From an uncultured Chloroflexia bacterium (GTDB taxonomy: Bacteria; Chloroflexota; Anaerolineae; Anaerolineales; Anaerolineaceae): DNA of 64,000 bases. Of the stretch, positions 1 through 40,359 are shown in pieces. Both the position numbers and the translations under genes were made by a program. Under the pieces are notes generated by a model, which was given only the letters and a program-made list of their open reading frames with translations, made no database searches and was not told where the DNA came from. The stretch is taken from assembly GCA_963747315.1 (NCBI GenBank), contig CAVVEQ010000011.1:53723-117722 (forward strand), in the 5' to 3' direction. Positions within the stretch are counted from its first letter, which is position 1; the number at the start of each line of letters is the position of its first letter.

Positions 1-788
1 CCCCTAAGCGCGGCTAAGGGCGCGGATTTGAATGCGGCGAGAAGGGAGTATTCGTAGTTGGTGTTCTGGTATTCAAAGAAAAGCATGCGCCAGAGCACCA
101 CCAGCACGAACAGGATCCAGTAGGGAGCTGTGGCCAGGGCGGTGTGTTTTACCAGTTCCCTGCGGCCGGGATACCGGTCCTGCAGCGCCAGGGCATGCAG
201 CCCCGCCCGCAGCAGCTCGAGCACAAAGAAGTATTCCATCGCCAGCAGGTTCACCAGGCTGAGCAGCAGTGCGGGGATGGTCAGGAGCCAGTACCGGCTG
301 CTCTCCTGCTGGGCGCGCACCGATAGCACCCAGGAGAAAAGCAGGCAGGAGAAGACCAGGAAGAAGTGCCCGAAGTTGATGGCGGTGAACTGCATGTAAA
401 AGCCGGGAAAGACCAGGAAAAAGAGCGCTGCCCAGGCGGCAAAGCGCCTGTTCCGCGGGAAGAGGGAGGTGAGCAGCATCCAGAGGGCGACCGTGCTCAA
501 CCAGCGCCAGAAGATTCCGAAGAGCTGCCACTGCCAGGCGGCGGTACCCAGGAGGGAAGTGGTGAAGGTCACGATCTGCCCGTAAAAGGGACGGTTGGTG
601 GCAAAATAGCGCGCCAGCCCCTCCGGCCCCGCGGATTTGGCGATCCAAAGGAACCACCAATCGTCCCAATAAAAACCCATCCTTCTGATATTGAGCCCGT
701 AGGCAAGGAAGGCGACGAGAAGCAGCAGGCTCGGGATGGCCAGCCACCCCGCGATGGTTTTAAACCGGTTCCCGTTCCGAACGGACAC
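1..788 (-). CDS. Polytopic integral membrane protein, N-terminal ~262 codons; the gene runs off the left edge. A GT-C-like glycosyltransferase fold is only a guess.
   Basis: Absent from the ORF track because it has no stop inside the window. My own minus-strand translation from GTG 788 (or ATG 680) down to position 1 is stop-free: ...KTIAGWLAIPSLLLLVAFLAYGLNIRRMGFYWDDWWFLWIAKSAGPEGLARYFATNRPFYGQIVTFTTSLLGTAAWQWQLFGIFWRWLSTVALWMLLTSLFP... It has many hydrophobic helices. The listed 73..747 minus ORF is an Arg/Ala/Gly-rich shadow frame. Confidence 0.55.
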   Translation of the reverse strand, partial: MSVRNGNRFKTIAGWLAIPSLLLLVAFLAYGLNIRRMGFYWDDWWFLWIAKSAGPEGLARYFATNRPFYGQIVTFTTSLLGTAAWQWQLFGIFWRWLSTVALWMLLTSLFPRNRRFAAWAALFFLVFPGFYMQFTAINFGHFFLVFSCLLFSWVLSVRAQQESSRYWLLTIPALLLSLVNLLAMEYFFVLELLRAGLHALALQDRYPGRRELVKHTALATAPYWILFVLVVLWRMLFFEYQNTNYEYSLLAAFKSAPLAALR

Positions 789-11382: not shown

Positions 11383-12216
11383 TTAGCCGATGAAGACCGC
11401 GCCGGAGAGCAGCAATGCCAGCAGCAATGCCAGCAGCACAGCCGCGGCATCTTTCCACATGAATTTCAATTCACGCATCGAGCCGCGCGGGCTGTGGCTG
11501 CCGTAGGCGCGGGCATCCATGGCCAGCGCCATGCGCTCGGCTTTTCCCAGGCTTGAAATAAACAGCGGCACGATCATGGGGGCGATCCGTTTCACCTGCT
11601 TGACCAGGTTGCCCTTCGCCGGGCTCCAATCCGCGCCGCGCGAGGCCTGTGCCTTGGCGGTGCGCTCGGCGGTGACGGCCAGCAGCGGCAAAAAACGCAG
11701 CGCCACCTGCACCACCATGACCGCGTCCTCGGCTGGGATGCCGATGCGCGTCAACGGCCGCAGCAGGGCGCCCATCCCCGCGAGAAGGTCGGAAGAGGAG
11801 GTGATGCTGGTGGCCAGGCCGATGGTGAGGATCAGGTCAGTGAAGCGCACCAGCACCGTGACGGCAGCCATGACCCCCGCGCCAGTGATCTGCAGGAAGC
11901 GCCACTGCCAGAGCACGTCACCCGGGTTGGCCGGAGGGGTGAGGAAGAGCTGCAGCACAGCCAGGAAGAGCAGGAAGGGCAGGGGAGCAGAAAGTCCGCG
12001 CAGGGCGAAGCGCAGGGGGATGCGCGCCAGGAGCAAACCGGCAAGGCAGAACCCAAACGCGATTCCCAACCACCATAAGCTGCGGGTGAAGGTGAGCGCC
12101 AGGATGAAGAGGGTGAAGATGACGATCTTGGCGCGCGGGTCCAGGCGGTGAAGCGGCGAATTGCCGGGCAGGTACTGCCCGATGTTGATATTGCGCAGGA
12201 ACTCAAAATCGTTCAT
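11383..12216 (-). CDS. ecfT: ECF transporter transmembrane (T) component
   Basis: CbiQ/EcfT-like sequence (LHRLDPRAKIVIFTLFILALTF...). ATG 12216 overlaps the TGA of the upstream ATPase gene (ATGA coupling). The track ORF extends to 12234. Confidence 0.85.
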   Translation of the reverse strand: MNDFEFLRNINIGQYLPGNSPLHRLDPRAKIVIFTLFILALTFTRSLWWLGIAFGFCLAGLLLARIPLRFALRGLSAPLPFLLFLAVLQLFLTPPANPGDVLWQWRFLQITGAGVMAAVTVLVRFTDLILTIGLATSITSSSDLLAGMGALLRPLTRIGIPAEDAVMVVQVALRFLPLLAVTAERTAKAQASRGADWSPAKGNLVKQVKRIAPMIVPLFISSLGKAERMALAMDARAYGSHSPRGSMRELKFMWKDAAAVLLALLLALLLSGAVFIG

Positions 12217-13961
12217 GCGCCCCTCCCCAGGCAAACCCGCAGCGCTGCGATAAGCTCATCCTGCCCGGTGATGCCATCCGGCAACGGCCAACCATTGCCC
12301 CGCAGGATGACGGCTGCCTGTGCGCTGAGGGGCGGCTCCAACCCGGCCTGAAGAAGCGTTTCCCCCTGGCTGAACACCGCGCCGGTTGCGCCTGCAAGGA
12401 TGGACTTACCGTTCTGCATCACGGTCGTATGAACCGTGACCCGGGCGATATCCCCCATGCGGTGCGAGGAAAGCACCAGGGTCTTACCCTGCCGGTGCAG
12501 GTCCTGCAGGTGGCGGATGATCGCCCGGCGGGTGAGGGGATCCAGTCCGGCGGTGGGTTCATCGAGGAGCAGGATATGCGGGTCAAGCGAGAGGATGGAG
12601 GCAAGCGCAACGCGGCGCTTTTCACCCCCGCTGAGGGTCCAGGTGAACCTGTCTTTATAGGAATCGAAATCCAGCCCCACCGCGCCCATCGCCTCGCGCA
12701 CCCGCTCGCGCAGGGATCCCTCCAGCTTCAATTGTTTTGCACCGTAAGCGATCTCGTCACCCACGTACTGCTCGAAGAACTGCACCTCGGGATTCTGGAA
12801 GATCAGCCCGGCAAGCCGGCAGAGCTCGCGCACACTCACCGCAGGGTCATTGAGGTCGAAGGTACCCACCCGCACCGTGCCCTGCTGCGGTTTGATCAAC
12901 CCGTTCAGGTGCTGCAGCAGGGTGGATTTTCCGCTTCCGGTTGCGCCGATCAACCCGTGAGCTTCACCTGCCCCCACCTGCAGGGAGACAGCTTCCAGCG
13001 CGCGGTGCGCCATGGGAGTATCCGCCAGGTAGGTGTACCCCAGTTCCTCCACGCGGATGATCGGTTCCGTCGCGCCTGGGGGTTCTCCGCGGCGTGCTGG
13101 GGCGGCTTTCAACCCGCGCGGGGTTCTGATAAGCCGCAGCTCCGCCAGCATCCGATCAAGGGTGTAGATGTGCGGCTGTAATTGTGGCAGGAGCGGACGC
13201 AGCGCCGAACAGAATACCTCGGCAGGGGGCAGCTCCAGCCCGAAGGTATCCAGGGCGGGTGCGGAGAATACCTCGCGGGGGGTGCCATCCAGCTCCACCC
13301 TGCCGCCGCGCAGGACGATCACCCGGTCCGCCTGCGAGGCCTCGTCCATGTGGTGGGTGATGAGCACCACGGTCACCCCGCGGGATTTGAGCGCGTGGAT
13401 CTGCTCCATCAGCATCCGCCTCCCGGCGGGGTCGATCATGGTGGTGGGCTCGTCAAAGAGCACCAGGCTCGGCTGCATGGCAAGCACCCCGGCCAGCGCC
13501 AGGCGCTGCATCTGCCCGGCGGAGAGCAGGTGTGGAGCCCGCCCGCGTTCGGCTTCCAGCCCGGAGAGGCGCAGGGCATCCTCCACCCGGGCGCGGATCT
13601 CCGCGGCGGGCAGGCCCAGGTTCTCGGGACCGAAGGCGATATCCTCCTCCACGCTGGTGGCGATGATCTGCTCCTCGGGGGATTGGAAGACCATCCCGAC
13701 CGTGGAGCGGATGGCTTTCAGGTTTTTGGCATTGCGGGTATCCAGCCCGTTCACCCGCACGCTGCCTTCATCCGGCAGCAGCAGGGCGTTCATTAGGCGC
13801 AGGAGCGTGGATTTGCCCGAGCCATTGGCGCCCAGAACCGCCGTGAATTCACCCTCCCGGAAGGTAAGGCTTATCCCGTGCAGGGCTGGCACGGGGGTAC
13901 CGCCCGGCACCGGGTGGCTGAAGGAGGCGTTCTCGATCTGCAGGATGGGGACGGGGCTCAA
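12213..13961 (-). CDS. ecfA: ECF transporter ATPase, fused tandem ABC domains (EcfA-EcfA')
   Basis: Two Walker A motifs (GANGSGKST, GATGSGKST), two ABC signatures (LSAGQMQR, LSGGEKRR) and two Walker B motifs (LVLFDEP, ILLLDEP). Confidence 0.9.
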   Translation of the reverse strand: MSPVPILQIENASFSHPVPGGTPVPALHGISLTFREGEFTAVLGANGSGKSTLLRLMNALLLPDEGSVRVNGLDTRNAKNLKAIRSTVGMVFQSPEEQIIATSVEEDIAFGPENLGLPAAEIRARVEDALRLSGLEAERGRAPHLLSAGQMQRLALAGVLAMQPSLVLFDEPTTMIDPAGRRMLMEQIHALKSRGVTVVLITHHMDEASQADRVIVLRGGRVELDGTPREVFSAPALDTFGLELPPAEVFCSALRPLLPQLQPHIYTLDRMLAELRLIRTPRGLKAAPARRGEPPGATEPIIRVEELGYTYLADTPMAHRALEAVSLQVGAGEAHGLIGATGSGKSTLLQHLNGLIKPQQGTVRVGTFDLNDPAVSVRELCRLAGLIFQNPEVQFFEQYVGDEIAYGAKQLKLEGSLRERVREAMGAVGLDFDSYKDRFTWTLSGGEKRRVALASILSLDPHILLLDEPTAGLDPLTRRAIIRHLQDLHRQGKTLVLSSHRMGDIARVTVHTTVMQNGKSILAGATGAVFSQGETLLQAGLEPPLSAQAAVILRGNGWPLPDGITGQDELIAALRVCLGRGA

Positions 13962-26355: not shown

Positions 26356-27903
26356 ATGCTCATTCACGCCGTTTTTCTGCTGATTTCCATTGCCCTTACG
26401 CTGCTCTTCTTCCTGTACGGGTTCAATCACTATTACCTGCTCGTTGCGGCGCGCCGGTATAGGGTTCCCGAATTGCCCAAGGATTCGAAAGCTCACAGAC
26501 CACGTGTGGCTGTTCACCTGCCGGTATACAACGAGAAGTACGTGATTCACAGGCTGGTATCGGCATGCACAAGTATGGCAGAGGTTTACGGTATCGACCG
26601 GGTGAGGATTGTGATACTGGATGACTCGGATGATGACACGGTCGCTGCCATCGATCAGGAGGCCTCCGATCAGCGCAGGATGGGCTTTCGAGTGGAAGTT
26701 TTGCGCCGCGACAACCGGCTGGGTTTCAAAGCCGGAGCTTTACAGGCGGCGCTCGATCAGACGGAAGAAGAGTTTATCGCCGTCTTTGACGCCGATTTTA
26801 TCCCAGCACCGGAATTCCTGGTTAGCAGCATACCCTATTTTCTTCAGGACGATCAGCTGGGTATCATCCAGAGCCGCTGGACGCACACCAACCGCAGATA
26901 CAATATCTTAACAGAGGCAATCGCCACGGGCATCGATGTGCACTTCCTGATCGAGCAATCCGGGCGCTACGCCGCGGGCTGCTTGCAGAACTTCAATGGC
27001 AGCGGTGGGACCCTGCGCAGGACAGCCTTGCAGCTGGCGGGCGGCTGGCAGGCGGACACCCTGGCTGAGGATCTGGATGCCAGTTACCGCATTCAGATGC
27101 AGGGCTACCGCGTGCTGTATTTAAGAGAACTGCACAGCCCCGGAGAAGTACCGCCGACCGTCCCCAGCTTCAAGAAACAGCAGGGACGTTGGGCTTGCGG
27201 CTCCTTGCAGACAGCCCGGAAACTGCTGCCTGATATGCTCTCCAACCCAAATTTTGGTTTTAAGCTGCGCCTGGAGGCATTCATCCACCTGACCAATTAC
27301 CTGGTACACCCTTTAATGTTTTCTGCTTTCCTGCTCGCCTGCCTATCTGCATTGCTGAGGGTGGATATCTTCCGCATTGGCGCGATCATTGCTGACCTGC
27401 GGAGCACCATCGTTGCCGGGACGGTGAGCTCGGCTGTTTCTTTCTCTCCTGGCTACCTGGGGTGGAGCCTGGCGGGTACGCTCATCGTGCTTTGCACCGT
27501 TGCCGCCTGGATCCCTCCAATGGTGGCTTTGAAAACCCAGCCGCTGCCCTGGTGGCGGAAGACCCTCAGCTTTGTCGTCCTTTTCTTCCTGGGCTGCGGG
27601 GTCAGCTTGAGCAACACCATCGAAGCCGGAAAGGCTTTGTTCACCAAGCGAAGCTGGGTTTTCAAGCGAACGCCCAAATATGCGGTCCAATATGGCGAAG
27701 ACAACTGGCGCGATAAACGCTACCAGGTAGCCTTAGATTTTGTCTGGCTGGTCGAGCTGGCGTTTGTCTGCCTGGGAATAGCATCAATCGGCTCCTCGGT
27801 TTTAAGCTCCAATTACGGGGTATTGGTAATCCTGGTCCCGTTTACCACTGCTTATACATTTGTTTTATTGCTGACGATCTTGCAAAGCCGGCAAGAGGCT
27901 TGA
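26356..27903 (+). CDS. Family 2 glycosyltransferase, processive CslA/cellulose-synthase-like membrane enzyme
   Basis: N-terminal TM helix; GT2 motifs VHLPVYNE, ILDDSDDDT, FDADF, EDLDASYR and QxxRW (QQGRWACG); 4-5 C-terminal TM helices. Confidence 0.9.
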   Translation: MLIHAVFLLISIALTLLFFLYGFNHYYLLVAARRYRVPELPKDSKAHRPRVAVHLPVYNEKYVIHRLVSACTSMAEVYGIDRVRIVILDDSDDDTVAAIDQEASDQRRMGFRVEVLRRDNRLGFKAGALQAALDQTEEEFIAVFDADFIPAPEFLVSSIPYFLQDDQLGIIQSRWTHTNRRYNILTEAIATGIDVHFLIEQSGRYAAGCLQNFNGSGGTLRRTALQLAGGWQADTLAEDLDASYRIQMQGYRVLYLRELHSPGEVPPTVPSFKKQQGRWACGSLQTARKLLPDMLSNPNFGFKLRLEAFIHLTNYLVHPLMFSAFLLACLSALLRVDIFRIGAIIADLRSTIVAGTVSSAVSFSPGYLGWSLAGTLIVLCTVAAWIPPMVALKTQPLPWWRKTLSFVVLFFLGCGVSLSNTIEAGKALFTKRSWVFKRTPKYAVQYGEDNWRDKRYQVALDFVWLVELAFVCLGIASIGSSVLSSNYGVLVILVPFTTAYTFVLLLTILQSRQEA

Positions 27904-34343: not shown

Positions 34344-34535
34344 CCACGAAGGACACGAAGAAGTGCGAAGGAACACAAAGAAAGCCTTATTAAAAACCTT
34401 CGTGTTCTTCGGGGTTTCTTGGTGATCTGTTCTGAAAATAGCAACTTCGTGAACCTTCGTGTCTTGGAGCCTTCGTGGTGATATTTTCATCCTTCTGGGT
34501 GAATACTATTCATGACAACTTCGTGGTTCAAAACA
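34333..34535 (+). repeat. Hairpin-repeat family: one variant A unit (34333..34432) plus one variant B unit (34428..34535)
   Basis: aaagatttaaccacgaaggacacgaagaagtgcgaaggaacacaaagaaa...ttcgtgttcttcggggtttcttggtg, then the variant B sequence. Together they fill the gap between the ATPase stop and the msrQ stop. Confidence 0.8.
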
Positions 34536-35217
34536 TCCTTGCCCACTTCGCAACCCGCCGGCGCACGGCAGGAATTCGCAGGACCAGCAAGATGAGCACC
34601 AGCAAGCCAAAGCTGAGCGGGCGGAGGATATCGCCGCTGAGATTGGTCAGAGAACCCTTCACCGCCCAGGCGTAGTGCAAGATCACCAGCCCGCTCGCCA
34701 GGTAGGCGGTCTTGTGCAGCCGCTTCCAGTTTTTGCCCAGGCGCTTCATCCAGTATTTGAATGACGTGGCAGCTAACGCCAGCAGGATCAGCCCCGCCAG
34801 CAAGCCTACAAAGATAAACGGTTTTTCTGTGGTCAAACGCAGGATCTCGCCCCAGTCCAACCCGTAATCCAGCACCACAAAGGTTAACAAGTGCAGGGCG
34901 AAGTACAAAAAGGCGTACAGGCCCAGGGTGCGGCGCTGCGGGATAAGCGCCCGCCAGCGGGTCAGGCTGACCACCGGCGTCACCGCCAGGCTCAGCACCA
35001 GCATATTGAGGGCGGCGCGCCCCAGGTGCTGCTCGACATACTGGATGGGGTTGGCGGTCAGGCTGCCGAAGGCCCACAGGTAAGCCAGCCTTGCCAATGC
35101 GAACAGGCCGATTCCGTGGACGCCGATACGCAGCCAATCCGGTTTGTCTCGCAGCGCGCTGAGCGCGCCGCGCGCACCAGGTGCCGGTTGGGGGGATGGG
35201 GCAGGGAAGGTATCCAT
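34528..35217 (-). CDS. msrQ: Protein-methionine-sulfoxide reductase heme-binding membrane subunit
   Basis: Ferric-reductase-like 6-TM protein (WLRIGVHGIGLFALARLAYLW...HLGRAALNMLVLSLAVTP...HKTAYLASGLVILHYAW), immediately downstream of msrP. Confidence 0.85.
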   Translation of the reverse strand: MDTFPAPSPQPAPGARGALSALRDKPDWLRIGVHGIGLFALARLAYLWAFGSLTANPIQYVEQHLGRAALNMLVLSLAVTPVVSLTRWRALIPQRRTLGLYAFLYFALHLLTFVVLDYGLDWGEILRLTTEKPFIFVGLLAGLILLALAATSFKYWMKRLGKNWKRLHKTAYLASGLVILHYAWAVKGSLTNLSGDILRPLSFGLLVLILLVLRIPAVRRRVAKWARMF

Positions 35218-35224
35218 GGTGCGC

Positions 35225-36160
35225 CTAATAGTCGCGGGCTAAATCCATGCCCGCATACAGCCCCGCCACCTGCTCGGCGTAGCCGTTGAACATCAGCGTA
35301 TCGCGCCGGCCCAGCTCGCCAATCCGGCGCTCGCTGCGCTGGCTCCAGCGCGGGTGATCCACCTGCGGGTTGACGTTGGCATAAAACCCGTATTCGTCCG
35401 GCGCGATCTGGCTCCACAGGGTGGCGGGCGGCTCGGCGGTCAGCTCGATCTTGACCACCGCCTTGATGGACTTGAAGCCGAATTTCCAGGGCACCACCAG
35501 GCGGATGCCGCCGCCGTTTTGCGCCGGCAACTCGCCGCCGTACAGGCCGGTCGCCAGCAGCGCCAGGTCATTCATGGCCTCGTCCAGGCGCAAGCCTTCC
35601 TGGTAGGGCCAGGGATAAAAACCCTGCCTTTGACCCGGCATTTCCTCCGGCCTGAGTACCGACTCAAAACGCACATACTTTGCATCGGATGTGGGTTCCA
35701 CTTCACTCAGCAGGCTGGCAAGCGGGAATCCCATCCAGGGAATCACCATGCTCCACGCCTCCACACAGCGCAGGCGGTAGATGCGCTCCTCAGGCGGGAA
35801 CTTCTTGACCAGCTCGTCCAGGCTGTACCTGCCGGGTATGCGCGCCAGCCCGGAGACTTCCACCTCCCAGGGCGAGGTCTGGAAATCCTTTGCCAGCCCG
35901 GCAACCCCTTCTTTATCGGTGGTGAACTCGTAATAGTTGTTATAGCCGGTGATATCTTCAAATGTGTTCGCCGGGTCGCCCAGCTCATCTGCCGGGCGGG
36001 GAGCCCCGCCTGGAGCAGGGGTCTCCACGGGTGAAGCGCCCTCACAGGCGGCAAGCAAAGCGCCTCCGGCAGCCAGCCCGGCAGCCTTCATGAACTGCCT
36101 GCGGGAAAGGTAGACCTGCTTGGGGGTAATTTCTGAGGATGGGATGGGGTTGCTTTTCAT
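35225..36160 (-). CDS. msrP: Protein-methionine-sulfoxide reductase catalytic subunit (molybdopterin, YedY-like)
   Basis: Tat signal (SRRQFMKAAGLAAGGALLAAC) and the oxidoreductase molybdopterin-binding fold (YRLRCVEAWSMVIPWMGFPL...RLVVPWKFGFKSIKAVVKIEL). Confidence 0.9.
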   Translation of the reverse strand: MKSNPIPSSEITPKQVYLSRRQFMKAAGLAAGGALLAACEGASPVETPAPGGAPRPADELGDPANTFEDITGYNNYYEFTTDKEGVAGLAKDFQTSPWEVEVSGLARIPGRYSLDELVKKFPPEERIYRLRCVEAWSMVIPWMGFPLASLLSEVEPTSDAKYVRFESVLRPEEMPGQRQGFYPWPYQEGLRLDEAMNDLALLATGLYGGELPAQNGGGIRLVVPWKFGFKSIKAVVKIELTAEPPATLWSQIAPDEYGFYANVNPQVDHPRWSQRSERRIGELGRRDTLMFNGYAEQVAGLYAGMDLARDY

Positions 36161-36175
36161 GATTGATCTCCTGAT

Positions 36176-36769
36176 TTACGGCACCGGCTCATCGAGCAGC
36201 GCCTGGATAGCCGCTTCGGTCTCCGCATAGCGCCCTTCGCCGATATGCGAGTAGCGCAGCCGTCCCTGCTTATCGATCAGGTACAGGGTGGGCCAGTAGC
36301 GGGTGTTGTAGAGACGCCAGGTCTTGCCATCGTTATCTTGCGCCACCGGGTAAGGTATGTTCAAATCGGCGACGGCTTGCTTGAGATTGTCTAAATCCTC
36401 TTCGTGCCTGAACTCGGGGTAGTGATTTCCGATGACCACCAGCCCGGAATCGGCGTACTGCTCGTGCCAGCCCCTCAACGAGGGGATCACATTGCGGCAG
36501 TTAATTCAACCGAAGGTCCACATATCAATCAGCACCACCTTGCCGCGCAGGTCCGCCAGGCGCAGCGGCTCAGGGGTGTTGATCCAGATTTCGTTGCCCA
36601 GCTCGGGCGCTTCGCCCAGGTCGGGGTAGGCTGCCGGCAGATCTTTCGCCGCCGGTATCTCTTTCGCCGCCGGCAGATCTTCCGCCGCCAGGGTGGAATT
36701 TGCAGCCTGAGAGCGGCAGCCCGCCAGGGCAAGCGCGCCGGTCACCAGCAGCCAGATTGCTAAACGCAT
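36176..36769 (-). CDS. DipZ-C-terminal/TlpA-like thioredoxin-fold redoxin lipoprotein with an in-frame TGA at the first active-site position (candidate selenocysteine, U-I-N-C)
   Basis: Track ORFs 36506..36769 and 36176..36490 are in one frame (594 nt). Lipobox LALAGC. The junction reads GKVVLIDMWTFG-TGA-INCRNVIPSL, compared with the family consensus GKVVLIDFW.YSCINC. The downstream sequence YWPTLYLIDKQGRLRYSHIGEGRY continues the same fold. Confidence 0.7.
36464..36490 (-). other. Candidate bacterial SECIS hairpin 3' of the in-frame UGA
   Basis: mRNA GUG-AU-CCCCUC-GUU-GAGGGG-CUG-GCAC: a 6-bp GC stem plus an outer GUG/CAC stem. The apical loop starts with GU about 27 nt after the UGA. Confidence 0.4.
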
Positions 36770-36847: not shown

Positions 36848-38080
36848 TTAACTCTTGGGCAGGGTAAAGGTGAACACGCTGCCCTGCCCGGGCGCGCTCT
36901 CGGCCCGGATGCTGCCCCGGTGGGCCTCGATGATGCCCCTGGCAATTGCCAACCCCAGCCCGGCGCCCCCGGCGGCGCGGTTGCGGGATTTATCCCCCCG
37001 GTAAAAGCGCTCGAAGACATGCGGTAAATCCTCCGGCAGGATGCCCTCGCCCGTATCCCTGACCGAGACGAAGACGCCCCCCGCCGCCAACCCGGCGCTC
37101 AGGGTGACATGACCTCCCGGCGGGGTGTGGTACAGGGCGTTGCTCACCAGGTTGTTGAGCGCCCGCCCCAGGCGCTGGACATCCATCACCAGCGGGTCGA
37201 TGCCCGGCGCGGCCGAGCCGCTCAGGATTACCTGCTTTTGAGCTGCCAGGCCGGAGAAGCTTTCCAGGGTGTCGGAGATCAGGTCGGAGAGGGAAGCCGG
37301 CTCCAGGTACAGGCTCAACCCACCCGCATCCAGCTGAGAGACTTGAAACAGGTCGTCCACCAGCAGGGAGAGGTTATCCACCTGCTTTTTGGCCTGCGCC
37401 AGGTATTGCTGCTGGGCTTGCGGGTCGGTGACCATGCCGTCTGCCAGGGCCTCCACCAGGACGCGGATCGAGGCCAGCGGGGTGCGCAGGTCGTGCCCGG
37501 CCCAGGCCACCAGGTCGCGGCGCAGGGCATCCAGCTCTTTCTGTTTCTGGTCAGCAGTCTGCAGGCGCTGCGCCATCTGGTTGAATGACTGCCCCAGGGC
37601 GGCGATCTCATCCCTGCCGGCGATGCTTGCCCGGGCAGACAGGTCCCCGCTTTCGATGGCGCGGGCGGCGTCTTCCAGCCGGGCGATGCGCTCGGTGAGC
37701 GCGCTGGCAAAGAAAGTGCCCAGCGCCACGGCGATGCCGCCCGCAAAAACCAGCAGGACCGTCGCCAGCATCAAGTCGTGCTGGCTGGCGAACATCAGCC
37801 GGGCTGTCAGCCAGACATTCAGGAAGGTTAGCAGGCTTGCCAGCACGTAAGTCCCGCCCAGCGTCCAACGCAGGGAAGGCGCCCACTCCAGCCAGCCCCA
37901 GCGGTAAGCCGCATACCCGGCCAGGATCGAGATGACCGCCGTCAATGCCAGGAACTGCGCCATCAGCCCCAGGTCGCCCATCGACGGGCGCATCAGCCAG
38001 TAGAAGATGCCCAGCGAGACGAGCAACACCAGGATGATACCGCTGGCAAGCAGCACGGTGCGGGAAGTGGATCTCTGCAT
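36848..38080 (-). CDS. Sensor histidine kinase (TM, HAMP, HisKA, HATPase_c)
   Basis: H-box AWAGHDLRTPLASI; N/G boxes NLVSNALYHTP and GGAGLGLAIARGIIEAHRGSI; HAMP-like segment RIARLEDAARAIESGDLS. Confidence 0.9.
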   Translation of the reverse strand: MQRSTSRTVLLASGIILVLLVSLGIFYWLMRPSMGDLGLMAQFLALTAVISILAGYAAYRWGWLEWAPSLRWTLGGTYVLASLLTFLNVWLTARLMFASQHDLMLATVLLVFAGGIAVALGTFFASALTERIARLEDAARAIESGDLSARASIAGRDEIAALGQSFNQMAQRLQTADQKQKELDALRRDLVAWAGHDLRTPLASIRVLVEALADGMVTDPQAQQQYLAQAKKQVDNLSLLVDDLFQVSQLDAGGLSLYLEPASLSDLISDTLESFSGLAAQKQVILSGSAAPGIDPLVMDVQRLGRALNNLVSNALYHTPPGGHVTLSAGLAAGGVFVSVRDTGEGILPEDLPHVFERFYRGDKSRNRAAGGAGLGLAIARGIIEAHRGSIRAESAPGQGSVFTFTLPKS

Positions 38081-38084
38081 GGCG

Positions 38085-38768
38085 CTACGGCTCGAACTTA
38101 TAGCCCACTCCCCACACGGTCACCAGGTGGCGGGGGGCAGCCGGGTCCGGCTCGATCTTCTCGCGCAGGCGGCGGATGTGCACGGTGACCGTGCCGGGGT
38201 CGATATAGTCCGACAGCCCCCAGATGCTCTCCAGGAGCTGGTCGCGGGTGAAAACCTGGCGCGGGTGCTGCGCCAGGTGGTAGATCAGGTCGAACTCCTT
38301 GGCGGTCAGAACGATCTCCTCGGCGCCCCGCGTGACCAGGCGCATCTGCGGGTTAATCCTCAGGTCGCCAAAATCCAGAGCGCGCTCTTCAATAGCCTGG
38401 GGAACGGGCCGCGTCCGGCGCAAAACAGCCCGCACCCGGCTGACCACCTCCTGCGGGCTGAAGGGCTTGACCACGTAATCGTCTGCGCCCAGCTCCAGCC
38501 CGGCGATGCGGTCGGCCTCCTCGCGGCGGGAGGTGAGCAGGATGATCGGCACATCGAAGCGGTCGCGCAGGTTGCGGGTGAGGGTGAAGCCGTCTATGCC
38601 GGGCAGCATCACGTCCAGGATGACCAGGTCCGGCAGCTGGCGCATCAGCGCCTCCTGGGCTGCCAGGCCATCGGCGTAGCAGGTCACCTGGTAACCGGCC
38701 CGCTTCAGGTACAGGCTGACCACCTCGCGAATATCCGGCTCATCCTCGACGATCACGATCTCGGTCAT
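38085..38768 (-). CDS. OmpR/PhoB-family response regulator
   Basis: Receiver domain (IVIVEDEPDI...DLVILDVMLPGIDG) plus a winged-helix output domain (LTAKEFDLIYHLAQHPRQVFTRDQLL...VWGVGYKF). Confidence 0.9.
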   Translation of the reverse strand: MTEIVIVEDEPDIREVVSLYLKRAGYQVTCYADGLAAQEALMRQLPDLVILDVMLPGIDGFTLTRNLRDRFDVPIILLTSRREEADRIAGLELGADDYVVKPFSPQEVVSRVRAVLRRTRPVPQAIEERALDFGDLRINPQMRLVTRGAEEIVLTAKEFDLIYHLAQHPRQVFTRDQLLESIWGLSDYIDPGTVTVHIRRLREKIEPDPAAPRHLVTVWGVGYKFEP

Positions 38769-39007
38769 GGGGTCTCCACATTGGGCTGGCGCACCGTGCC
38801 AGGCGAGCTGGGTGAATGACGGAGCGCTTTGAGCTTTGTCCAGGTTTTAGAACACAGCTTTCAACTACAACCAGGAGCCTGGACAAAGCAAGTATATACC
38901 GGAATTATTACACAAATCTTAAGCCTTGTTCATAGTCCCGTAAGGTTGCCTTCGGTTTCTCGTAAGAACTACTCGCTAAGATGATGAAAACCAGAAATAC
39001 GGAGGCT

Positions 39008-39662
39008 ATGATGATTAAGAAAACCCTGCTTGTCGTGTTCGTTTTCGCCCTGCTCGTCAGCGCCTGCTCGCCCGCAGCGGAGGCGATGGAGGAGAAACCG
39101 GCTGAGGCGATGATGGAGGAGAAGAACTCCTGACGCAATGATGGAAGAAACGCCCGAGACTATGATGGATGAGAAAACCCCCGAGGCGATGGTGGATGAA
39201 ATGATGGAAGCCCCCGCCTGGTTCGGCGCGGCGCTGACCAACGTGAGCAGCGGGGAGGACTTCACCATCAGCGACTTCAAGGGTAAAGTCGTCCTGGTGG
39301 AAACCCTGGCGATGTGGTGCCCGAGCTGCAAACGCCAGCAAATCCAGGTGAAAGCCCTGCACGAAGCGCTGGGTATGGACGAGGACTTGGTTTCGATCGG
39401 GCTGGATATCGACCCCAACGAGAACGCCGCCGACCTGAAAGCTTATACGGAAGCCAACAGCTTCGACTGGATTTACGCGGTGGCCCCGGCAGAGGTATCC
39501 CGCGAGATCGGCGCTCTGTACGGCGACCAGTTCCTGAACCCGACCTCCACGCCGATCCTGGTCATCGACCGCCACGGCGAGGTCCACCCCATGCCGTTCG
39601 GGGTCAAAAGCGCCGCAGACCTGCAAGCGTTCATCGAGCCTTTCCTCAAGGAAGGAATGTAG
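39008..39662 (+). CDS. TlpA/ResA-like thiol-disulfide oxidoreductase lipoprotein (CPSC); the signal-peptide exon is separated by one frameshift
   Basis: ATG 39008 follows GGAGG and encodes MMIKKTLLVVFVFALLVSAC...EAMMEEK, then a stop at 39131. The frame of track ORF 39138..39662 continues ...TPDAMMEETPE... if one A near 39125 is removed. Active site is LAMWCPSCKRQ. Confidence 0.75.
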
Positions 39663-39690
39663 GCCCAACCGGAGGGAAAGCGAGCCGACT

Positions 39691-40359
39691 ATGGAAACCG
39701 TCCTGACTTCGATCAGCCTGGGCCTGCTGGCCAGCGCCAGCCCGTGCATCCTGCCGCTGTATCCAGGCTACCTGGCCTACCTGAGCGGGGCGAGCCAGAC
39801 ATCCCGCGGCAGCAAGCGCTATTTCCTGGGCTTCTTTGTGCTGGCAGGCGTGCTGAGCATGATGCTGGCGCTGGGCCTGCTGATCGCACTGGTATCGGTT
39901 TCGGTGGGGCGGGCGCTCTCGGTGGTCATCCCTCTGGCAGACCTGCTAATCATCTCCCTGGGGGTCCTGCTCCTGCTGGACAAGAACCCGTTCAAGGCCT
40001 TGCCGCAGATCGAAGCGCCCGCCTTGAGCAGCCCGTACGTCAACGCCTATCTGTACGGCTTGCTGTACGGACCGATCGCCCTGCCCTGCTCTGGCCCGCT
40101 GGTGGTGAGCATCTTTGCCATCTCGCTAACCGCTGCAGAAGCCCTGAGCAAGCTGAATATCTTCCTGTGGTTCGGGGTGGGGTTCGGGCTGCCGCTGCTG
40201 GCGCTCTCGCTAATCTCCGGCGCCATGCAGCGCGATATCACCCGCTGGCTGGCGATCAACGCCCGCCTGGTCAACATCCTGGGCGGGCTGCTGCTGGTGG
40301 GGATTGGGCTCTACGATTTCTGGGCCAACTGGGAGCTGATCGGCCTGCTGCTGGGGTAA
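39691..40359 (+). CDS. ccdA: Cytochrome c biogenesis / thiol-disulfide electron transfer membrane protein CcdA (DsbD-like TM domain)
   Basis: Conserved Cys in TM1 (ASASPCILPLYPGYLAYL) and TM4 (GPIALPCSGPL). Six TM helices. Confidence 0.85.
   Translation: METVLTSISLGLLASASPCILPLYPGYLAYLSGASQTSRGSKRYFLGFFVLAGVLSMMLALGLLIALVSVSVGRALSVVIPLADLLIISLGVLLLLDKNPFKALPQIEAPALSSPYVNAYLYGLLYGPIALPCSGPLVVSIFAISLTAAEALSKLNIFLWFGVGFGLPLLALSLISGAMQRDITRWLAINARLVNILGGLLLVGIGLYDFWANWELIGLLLG

Follow-up and report, generated by a model that had tools for sequence, protein, structure and literature searches.

Does the TGA codon at 36508..36506, on the minus strand of a 64,000-nucleotide stretch of DNA from an uncultured Chloroflexia bacterium (contig CAVVEQ010000011.1; the whole stretch is called the window here), break a redoxin gene in two, or does it encode selenocysteine (Sec)? 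A first-pass annotation of the window had proposed the latter, namely a DipZ/TlpA-like redoxin lipoprotein in which TGA replaces the first Cys of a CxxC motif and is followed by a hairpin resembling a bacterial selenocysteine insertion sequence (SECIS). Our analysis supports this interpretation through the pairing of Sec with Cys at this position in homologues, the constrained reading frame on both sides of the TGA, and a covarying hairpin that is linked to the TGA state. We consider it very probable that 36769..36176 (minus strand) is one gene, encoding an exported, lipid-anchored selenoprotein with a functional SECIS. The doubt that is left concerns the Sec machinery, the genes for which do not lie in the window.

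A single reading frame with one internal TGA

The minus-strand frame 36769..36176 comprises 198 codons, and its sole internal stop is the TGA at 36508..36506. Read as a selenoprotein gene (36176..36769, minus strand) it is complete, with 197 residues and a stop codon, an assignment based on the single frame with one TGA, on Pfam matches and on the match to PDB entry 2HYX described below. The open reading frame (ORF) list cuts the locus into 36506..36769 (87 residues) and 36176..36490 (104 residues, with a GTG start), and the TGA is separated from this downstream GTG by five sense codons, ATT AAC TGC CGC AAT. The junction around the TGA reads ...LRGKVVLIDMWTFG*INCRNVIPSLRGWHEQY... (in a longer upstream version, GKVVLIDMWTFG-TGA-INCRNVIPSLRGWHEQY). 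In the homologue alignment the UGA (36506..36508, minus strand) stands in place of the N-terminal nucleophilic Cys of CxxC and would specify Sec as residue 88. The TGC at 36497..36499 (minus strand) encodes the putative resolving Cys91 of the resulting UxxC motif, which is invariant in our alignment A3 and aligns with the second Cys of the DipZ CINC motif. All coordinates in the first-pass annotation proved correct, and its single frame, split ORFs, junction and hairpin were all recovered.

TGA is still an ordinary stop codon in the window (G+C content 58%), as had also been claimed. It terminates 13 of the 34 long, largely non-overlapping ORFs, including the two that had been cited as examples, 26356..27903 (plus strand) and 12213..13961 (minus strand). 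Among the 59 pairs of window ORFs that are joined by a TGA, a redox motif is found only at the 36176..36769 pair.

Public gene calls keep only the half that follows the TGA (36176..36490, minus strand, in the window, and 376..690 in the related contig L081), as a 104-residue 'hypothetical protein' with a GTG start, and the 87-residue upstream fragment is absent from them. The locus is systematically mis-annotated in public data.

The Sec/Cys codon across relatives

All of the best 120 homologues taken from the protein database have Cys at the TGA position (W-T-[FY]-x-C-x-N-C), so that the nucleophilic Cys falls on the TGA as the first-pass annotation had suggested. Since this database is biased towards uninterrupted ORFs, the state of the codon was examined at the DNA level, using 80 related genome loci (one genome per species), of which 78 carry the motif, and a metagenome sample of at least 120 contigs matching MWTFG[U/C]INC. 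Whether close relatives carry TGA or a Cys codon had been posed as a check on the selenoprotein proposal, and both states were found in equal numbers, with TGA in 39 of the 78 motif-bearing genome loci and TGC or TGT in the other 39 (30 and 9, respectively). Among the metagenome contigs listed, 64 have TGA, 41 TGC and 15 TGT. The genome loci with TGA are all labelled as Chloroflexota (39/39), with assignments to Anaerolineales, Anaerolineae, Caldilineaceae or Litorilinea. The carriers of TGA forms include four complete Caldilineaceae chromosomes, OZ251482.1, OY760647.1, OZ242330.1 and OZ241972.1.

Both the TGA and the hairpin are also present in L081, an independent Joint Genome Institute contig that is approximately 90% identical to the window. 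An assembly artefact is ruled out, because L081 shares the TGA yet differs from the window by synonymous substitutions in the two codons immediately upstream of it.

The frame beyond the TGA is maintained. The distance from the TGA to the terminal stop is 106-112 codons in 40 of 40 TGA forms, and the proportions of nonsynonymous and synonymous differences in this stretch (pN 0.19, pS 0.73) correspond to a median dN/dS of 0.12, a constraint at least equal to that of the Cys forms. The half that precedes the TGA is under equal purifying selection. Relatives in which the two halves are separate or decayed, the case that the first-pass annotation had named against its own proposal, were not seen among these loci. 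TGA is the terminator of 15 of the 40 TGA-form genes themselves, and the codon is therefore still a terminator in those organisms. A rough neighbour-joining tree requires at least 11 switches between Sec and Cys, which argues that the association between TGA and the hairpin is not one inherited event.

A hairpin linked to the TGA state

The hairpin GUGAUCCCCUCGUUGAGGGGCUGGCAC, at 36490..36464 (minus strand), has a 6-bp stem, CCCCUC/GAGGGG, and a GUU loop, and the folding energy of the 27-mer is -12.7 kcal/mol. The putative core of the bacterial SECIS (bSECIS) lies at 36469..36487 (minus strand), with the 5' arm AUCCCCUC (36487..36480), the loop GUU (36479..36477) and the 3' arm GAGGGGCU (36476..36469). 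The core stem in the window has six contiguous base pairs, one U.C mismatch and a closing A-U pair, and its loop starts 26 nt past the UGA. The lower part of the extended hairpin drawn in the first-pass annotation, with GUG...GGCAC flanks (36464..36490, minus strand), is weakly supported; this extension (GUG...CAC or GU...GC) is 68-81% paired with no double changes, and it was not counted as part of the element.

Comparison of the TGA forms gives a consensus 8-bp helix, AUYCCYUC / GARGGRAU, in one fixed register with the loop 26 nt after the UGA. The loop is G-U-U in 34 TGA forms and G-G-U in 6. At least six contiguous base pairs are present in this register in 38 of 40 TGA forms (36 of which are perfect), versus 2 of 39 Cys forms. 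The helix is 98.3% paired on the 40-sequence alignment and contains compensatory pairs (U-A<->C-G, 27/8; C-G<->U-A, 32/5), whereas registers slid by 1-3 columns are only 40-60% paired. Codon choice within the stem follows the same division: Ser is TCG in 40 of 40 TGA forms and Leu is TTG in 34 of 34, while both are mixed in the Cys forms, and Arg is AGG in 34 of 35 TGA forms, compared to a single AGG among the 9 Arg codons of the Cys forms. The covarying positions pair a synonymous Ile or Pro change with a Gly/Glu or Arg/Lys replacement, which means that the RNA structure shapes the peptide.

The bSECIS model quoted in PMC13188914 describes a loop of 3-9 nt that opens with G[G/U] (a G among its first two nucleotides) and a stem of 4-16 bp, with further limits of 16-37 nt from the UGA to the loop and a minimum free energy of at most -7.5 kcal/mol. 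The window hairpin lies within every one of these constraints, with its 3-nt loop, 6 contiguous bp (in an 8-bp register) and 26-nt spacing, and the energy threshold is passed by 39 of 40 TGA forms. The fold picked out in the first-pass annotation is in this respect a conserved, TGA-linked element that fits the bSECIS model.

Some Cys forms have also kept the hairpin. L002 and L025, both with TGC and both nested among Sec forms, retain a perfect 8-bp hairpin, and 5 contiguous bp are left in the TGC forms L014 and L015. From their sequences, these hairpins look like relic SECIS elements that have outlasted a recent Sec-to-Cys conversion.

Fold, active site and export signal of the encoded protein

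The predicted protein consists of a lipoprotein signal, an Ala/Lys/Glu/Pro-rich linker and a DipZ/TlpA-like thioredoxin-fold domain with U88-I-N-C91. The predicted signal peptide MRLAIWLLVTGALALAG-C18 (36716..36769, minus strand) was assigned by its lipobox, L-A-G-C, in which the Cys18 codon occupies 36718..36716. A lipobox pattern of the PROSITE type is found in the window protein and, overall, in 38 of 40 TGA forms (as a pattern match only), and Cys18 is nearly invariant in alignment A3. Based on this pattern, the protein is predicted to be extracytoplasmic.

A Pfam search with C substituted for the stop matched AhpC-TSA (53.4 bits, cut-off 26), Redoxin (36.5 bits, cut-off 26.6) and Thioredoxin_8 (35.7 bits, cut-off 27), together with a weak match to GSHPx. 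No NCBIfam model reached its cut-off for this protein and no selenoprotein model was among the matches; the nearest models were ResA, StoA, DsbE and TlpA, at 25-52 bits and all far under their cut-offs. Among solved structures, the best sequence match is to the ectodomain of Mycobacterium tuberculosis DipZ (Rv2874; PDB 2HYX/5CYY), over residues 43-196 with E = 1.3e-41. In this alignment W84-T-F-G-U88-I-N-C91 falls on WAYSCINC of DipZ and Y-W159-P160-T on its YWPA, and the cis-Pro motif YWPT is encoded in the half of the gene that follows the TGA. Alignment A3 shows no variation at W84, C91, W159 and P160, nor at residue 88, where Sec was written as C. The domain models, the active site and the cis-Pro motif all indicate a predicted thioredoxin-fold oxidoreductase of the TlpA/ResA/DipZ type, and the DipZ/TlpA assignment of the first-pass annotation, with CINC aligned to the DipZ motif, was right.

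DipZ proper, a fusion of DsbD_TM, redoxin and Thioredoxin_10, was rejected as an identity for the window protein, which is a redoxin domain alone (197 residues). The complete DipZ architecture is present in a Cys form, L078 (JBDIVN010000001.1, Vampirovibrionales), as a 551-residue DsbD_TM + redoxin + Thioredoxin_10 fusion, an arrangement that joins the redoxin domain to an electron conduit of the CcdA type. Peroxiredoxin was also rejected, as V-L-I-D-M-W-T-F-G-U has no Pro at -7 (PxxxTxx[C/U] is absent) and the second Cys is of the CxxC type.

It could still be argued that the selenoprotein acts as a thiol or selenol peroxidase against peroxides or hypochlorous acid-derived oxidants at the membrane surface, rather than as a protein-disulfide reductase. 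Its top Pfam match is AhpC/TSA, accompanied by the weak match to GSHPx, and its operon with msrPQ (see below) suggests a role in oxidative stress. The motif, however, is the W-x-x-x-[U/C]-x-x-C of TlpA, ResA and DipZ and lacks the Pro at -7 that is found in PxxxTxxC, the nearest NCBIfam models are all reductases, and the fusion of relatives to a DsbD-type transporter points to an oxidoreductase that is fed with reductant. A peroxidase role therefore seems unlikely to us, and a disulfide reductase is the function that we prefer.

Decoding of the UGA

Several observations weigh against a selenoprotein. No selA, selB, selD or tRNA-Sec gene was found in the 64-kb window, the 80 genome loci or the 121 metagenome loci: tblastn with approximate sequences of Escherichia coli SelA, SelB and SelD, used only as probes, gave no credible match in either the window or the 201 loci, and with ARAGORN the window proved free of tRNA genes and the 39 TGA loci free of tRNA-Sec. 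Rfam at the gathering threshold matched nothing in the window, and at E <= 10 the only matches around the site were chance matches to a CRISPR repeat and a small nucleolar RNA. The 81-nt fold of the window is unremarkable against shuffled sequences (z = -1.2), so that the significance of the hairpin comes solely from the comparative data, where the contrast between TGA and Cys forms (Fisher p = 1e-17) is from a test that takes no account of phylogeny. The window also has a weaker variant of the hairpin, with a U.C mismatch that is missing from most relatives. Lastly, the metagenome TGA forms L132, L144 and L182 are without a hairpin in the SECIS register.

In these three contigs the peptide IPSLREW is encoded by other codons (AUC CCG AGC CUC CGU GAG UGG). 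The downstream frames of L144 and L182 are intact (109 and 111 codons), and the two differ from each other elsewhere. All three may use another SECIS or may be recent nonsense mutants.

Sec machinery is known from related lineages. Anaerolinea thermophila UNI-1 and Caldilinea aerophila DSM 14535 are each positive for SelD, SelA and SelB, with 4 and 3 selenoproteins, respectively (Peng et al. 2016, PMC5029168 Tables S1/S2), and SelB is encoded in Anaerolineales single-cell genomes (PMC4959059).

If the UGA were recoded to a residue other than Sec, whether under the direction of a SECIS or otherwise, Cys could be inserted by a tRNASec-like tRNA together with a SelB paralogue, or the codon could be read through by a near-cognate tRNA. 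A system of Cys insertion with a tRNASec-like tRNA is known. Recoding of this kind would agree with the fact that Sec machinery was not seen in the window, and Cys would be functional at this position, as in half of the relatives. The use of TGA as a stop excludes a genome-wide reassignment. The cultured Anaerolineae and Caldilineae have the ordinary SelA/SelB/SelD set and predicted selenoproteins, and the hairpin fits the standard SelB-type model, all of which makes a residue other than Sec very unlikely.

A nonsense mutation or an assembly error, leaving either a pseudogene or a codon that is really TGC, is harder still to sustain. The source annotation does treat the locus as broken, with only the 104-residue downstream ORF on record, the first-pass annotation mentioned other genes in the window as apparently disrupted, by putative indels, and L001, the closest relative among the genome loci, has TGC. 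Yet the same TGA recurs in 39 other genome loci, in at least 64 metagenome contigs and in L081, the downstream ORFs are intact with a dN/dS of 0.12, and the window has the hairpin that is specific to TGA forms. We regard a pseudogene or an error as extremely improbable. To termination at the UGA, giving an 87-residue lipopeptide and a 104-residue fragment re-initiated at GTG 36490, we attach almost no weight: there is a GTG five codons past the TGA and gene callers use it, but the split would run through the active site of a thioredoxin fold, the second half would have neither signal peptide nor nucleophile, the GTG varies among relatives (GTA in several loci, ACG in those of Caldilineaceae), and purifying selection acts on the upstream half to the same degree.

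For the selenoprotein that we favour, the standard bacterial mechanism would have the UGA at 36508..36506 decoded as Sec, with the hairpin core (36487..36469) and its G-U-U loop serving as the SECIS that recruits SelB-GTP-Sec-tRNASec once the ribosome has paused at this codon. Judging by the signal sequence, the product would be exported by the general secretory pathway and lipidated at Cys18, and would sit on the outer face of the cytoplasmic membrane. Homology, genomic context and the fused relative suggest that U88-x-x-C91 may there take part in disulfide (selenylsulfide) exchange, reducing oxidized envelope proteins, and that it is re-reduced, probably, by the neighbouring CcdA/DsbD-type transporter. 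In line with general selenoprotein chemistry, Sec would make the site more nucleophilic and more resistant to irreversible over-oxidation.

Gene neighbourhood

The redoxin gene lies in a row of five genes on the minus strand. Directly upstream is a predicted sensor histidine kinase (HK; 38080..36848), preceded by a predicted OmpR-family response regulator (RR; 38768..38085); both were assigned from NCBIfam two-component matches, none of which reached a family cut-off. Downstream, msrP (35225..36160) starts 15 nt past the redoxin stop codon. It encodes a molybdopterin-dependent methionine-sulfoxide reductase with a twin-arginine translocation (Tat) signal, as judged by the signal itself and by the NCBIfam MsrP equivalog (441.5 bits, cut-off 207). 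A further 7 nt past msrP lies msrQ (34528..35217), for the haem-binding membrane subunit (NCBIfam MsrQ equivalog, 161.7 bits, cut-off 130). On the plus strand, and divergent from this cluster, are genes for a second TlpA-like redoxin with WCPSC and a Met/Glu-rich N-terminal region (39138..39662; Pfam Redoxin) and for a CcdA/DsbD-type membrane electron transporter (39691..40359; Pfam DsbD_TM).

The order RR-HK-redoxin is conserved in about 30 genome loci, and RR-HK-redoxin-msrP-msrQ recurs in many Anaerolineales loci, with Sec and Cys alike. The adjacency of the TlpA-like redoxin and CcdA pair (39138..40359) to the cluster is kept in 11 genome loci. As weak evidence on transcription, promoter-like sites were found only around position 38,900, in the divergent region, where the sole minus-strand site is upstream of the response regulator gene, and no terminator-like site was found on the minus strand within the five genes. 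Going by gene order, the two-component system next to it probably governs joint expression of the redoxin and MsrP-MsrQ, which would make the cluster a module for the repair of oxidative damage to the envelope.

The substrates, CcdA as the electron donor and co-regulation with msrPQ are suggested by homology and gene order only, and the Sec forms of Caldilineaceae occur in unrelated contexts, unlinked to msrPQ. A universal functional link to msrPQ was rejected, as these Sec forms have transposases on one side and a 2-hydroxyacid dehydrogenase gene on the other. In one such locus, L045 (2633..5378; Caldilineaceae chromosome OY760647.1), the Sec-form redoxin gene is immediately preceded by transposase genes of the IS66 family and of DDE_3 type.

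Relation to known systems

UxxC selenoproteins with a thioredoxin fold, including redoxin and TlpA-like families, are already established, and HEU0032618.1, MGB1650493.1 and WP_010940744.1 are among the examples in the catalogue. Compared by description only, the catalogued UxxC redoxins and the window protein are alike in having Sec for the first Cys of CxxC, an AhpC-TSA/Redoxin/TlpA-type domain, many Cys homologues and a bSECIS within the coding region. The window gene differs in encoding a Chloroflexota lipoprotein, often within an RR-HK-redoxin-msrPQ cluster.

M. tuberculosis DipZ shares the W-x-x-x-C-I-N-C and YWP(T/A) motifs and an extracytoplasmic location. It has Cys rather than Sec, with DsbD_TM fused at the N-terminus and Thioredoxin_10 at the C-terminus, whereas the window protein is a lipid-anchored redoxin domain with no fused partner, and CcdA has a gene of its own. 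TlpA, ResA, CcmG (DsbE) and StoA, extracytoplasmic thiol-disulfide reductases that are tethered to the membrane and supplied by CcdA or DsbD, belong to the same fold family. In contrast to these, the window redoxin scores far under the family cut-offs and has no link to cytochrome c maturation genes.

Coupling of a redoxin to the repair of methionine sulfoxide in the envelope has a precedent in the N-terminal domain of Neisseria PilB (PDB 2FY6, 2JZR, 2H30), a homologous redoxin domain (E ~1e-5) with the same kind of genetic association. PilB-type domains reduce MsrA/B, whereas the partner genes in the window encode MsrP and MsrQ. As MsrP is a molybdoenzyme that is fed by the haem protein MsrQ and does not need thioredoxin, the coupling between the redoxin and msrPQ may be regulatory rather than catalytic. 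A two-component system also adjoins msrP-msrQ in E. coli (hprSR-msrPQ, or yedVW-yedYZ), a locus that is not known to have a redoxin gene. The regulator in the window is only generically of the OmpR family (154 bits with the HprR model, whose cut-off is 353).

Against this background, our results do not overturn current understanding. They make modest additions to it, in the form of lipoprotein export, breadth across Chloroflexota, linkage to msrPQ and a clean series of switches between Sec and Cys. Given the split annotation, dozens of Chloroflexota genomes under-report a selenoprotein. The results also add to the evidence for selenium use beyond formate dehydrogenase, in an exported enzyme, among many Anaerolineales and Caldilineaceae, and the link to msrPQ suggests a role for that enzyme in the resistance of the cell envelope to oxidants. 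The 40 genomic Sec forms interleaved with Cys forms, with a simple 8-bp triloop SECIS and some hairpin-bearing Cys forms, provide a natural dataset for the study of Sec/Cys exchange and of SelB-SECIS recognition in Chloroflexota.

A broader proposal, which we put forward tentatively and which may well prove mistaken, is that the UINC redoxin lipoproteins form a selenoprotein family that extends across Chloroflexota and has so far lacked a specific description. Its members would be selenium-dependent extracytoplasmic reductases in an envelope repair regulon under two-component control (RR-HK-SecRedoxin-MsrP-MsrQ together with TlpA-CcdA). Sec would have been gained and lost repeatedly (the 11 or more switches noted above) with selenium supply or exposure to oxidants, leaving relic SECIS elements in recent Cys converts.

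Two minor observations concern individual loci. Between L014 (JACKAV010000001.1, Anaerolineales) and L015 (JACKFL010000015.1, 'Candidatus Omnitrophota') there is no difference in match statistics, in gene layout or in the 90 nt surrounding the codon; both stem from bins of one study that were assigned to different phyla, and one of the two contigs was probably mis-binned. The linker of the window protein, LPAAKEIPAAKDLPAA (36640..36700, minus strand), is repeat-like and rich in Ala, Lys, Glu and Pro, and its coding sequence differs from that of L081 by two in-frame 18-nt indels.

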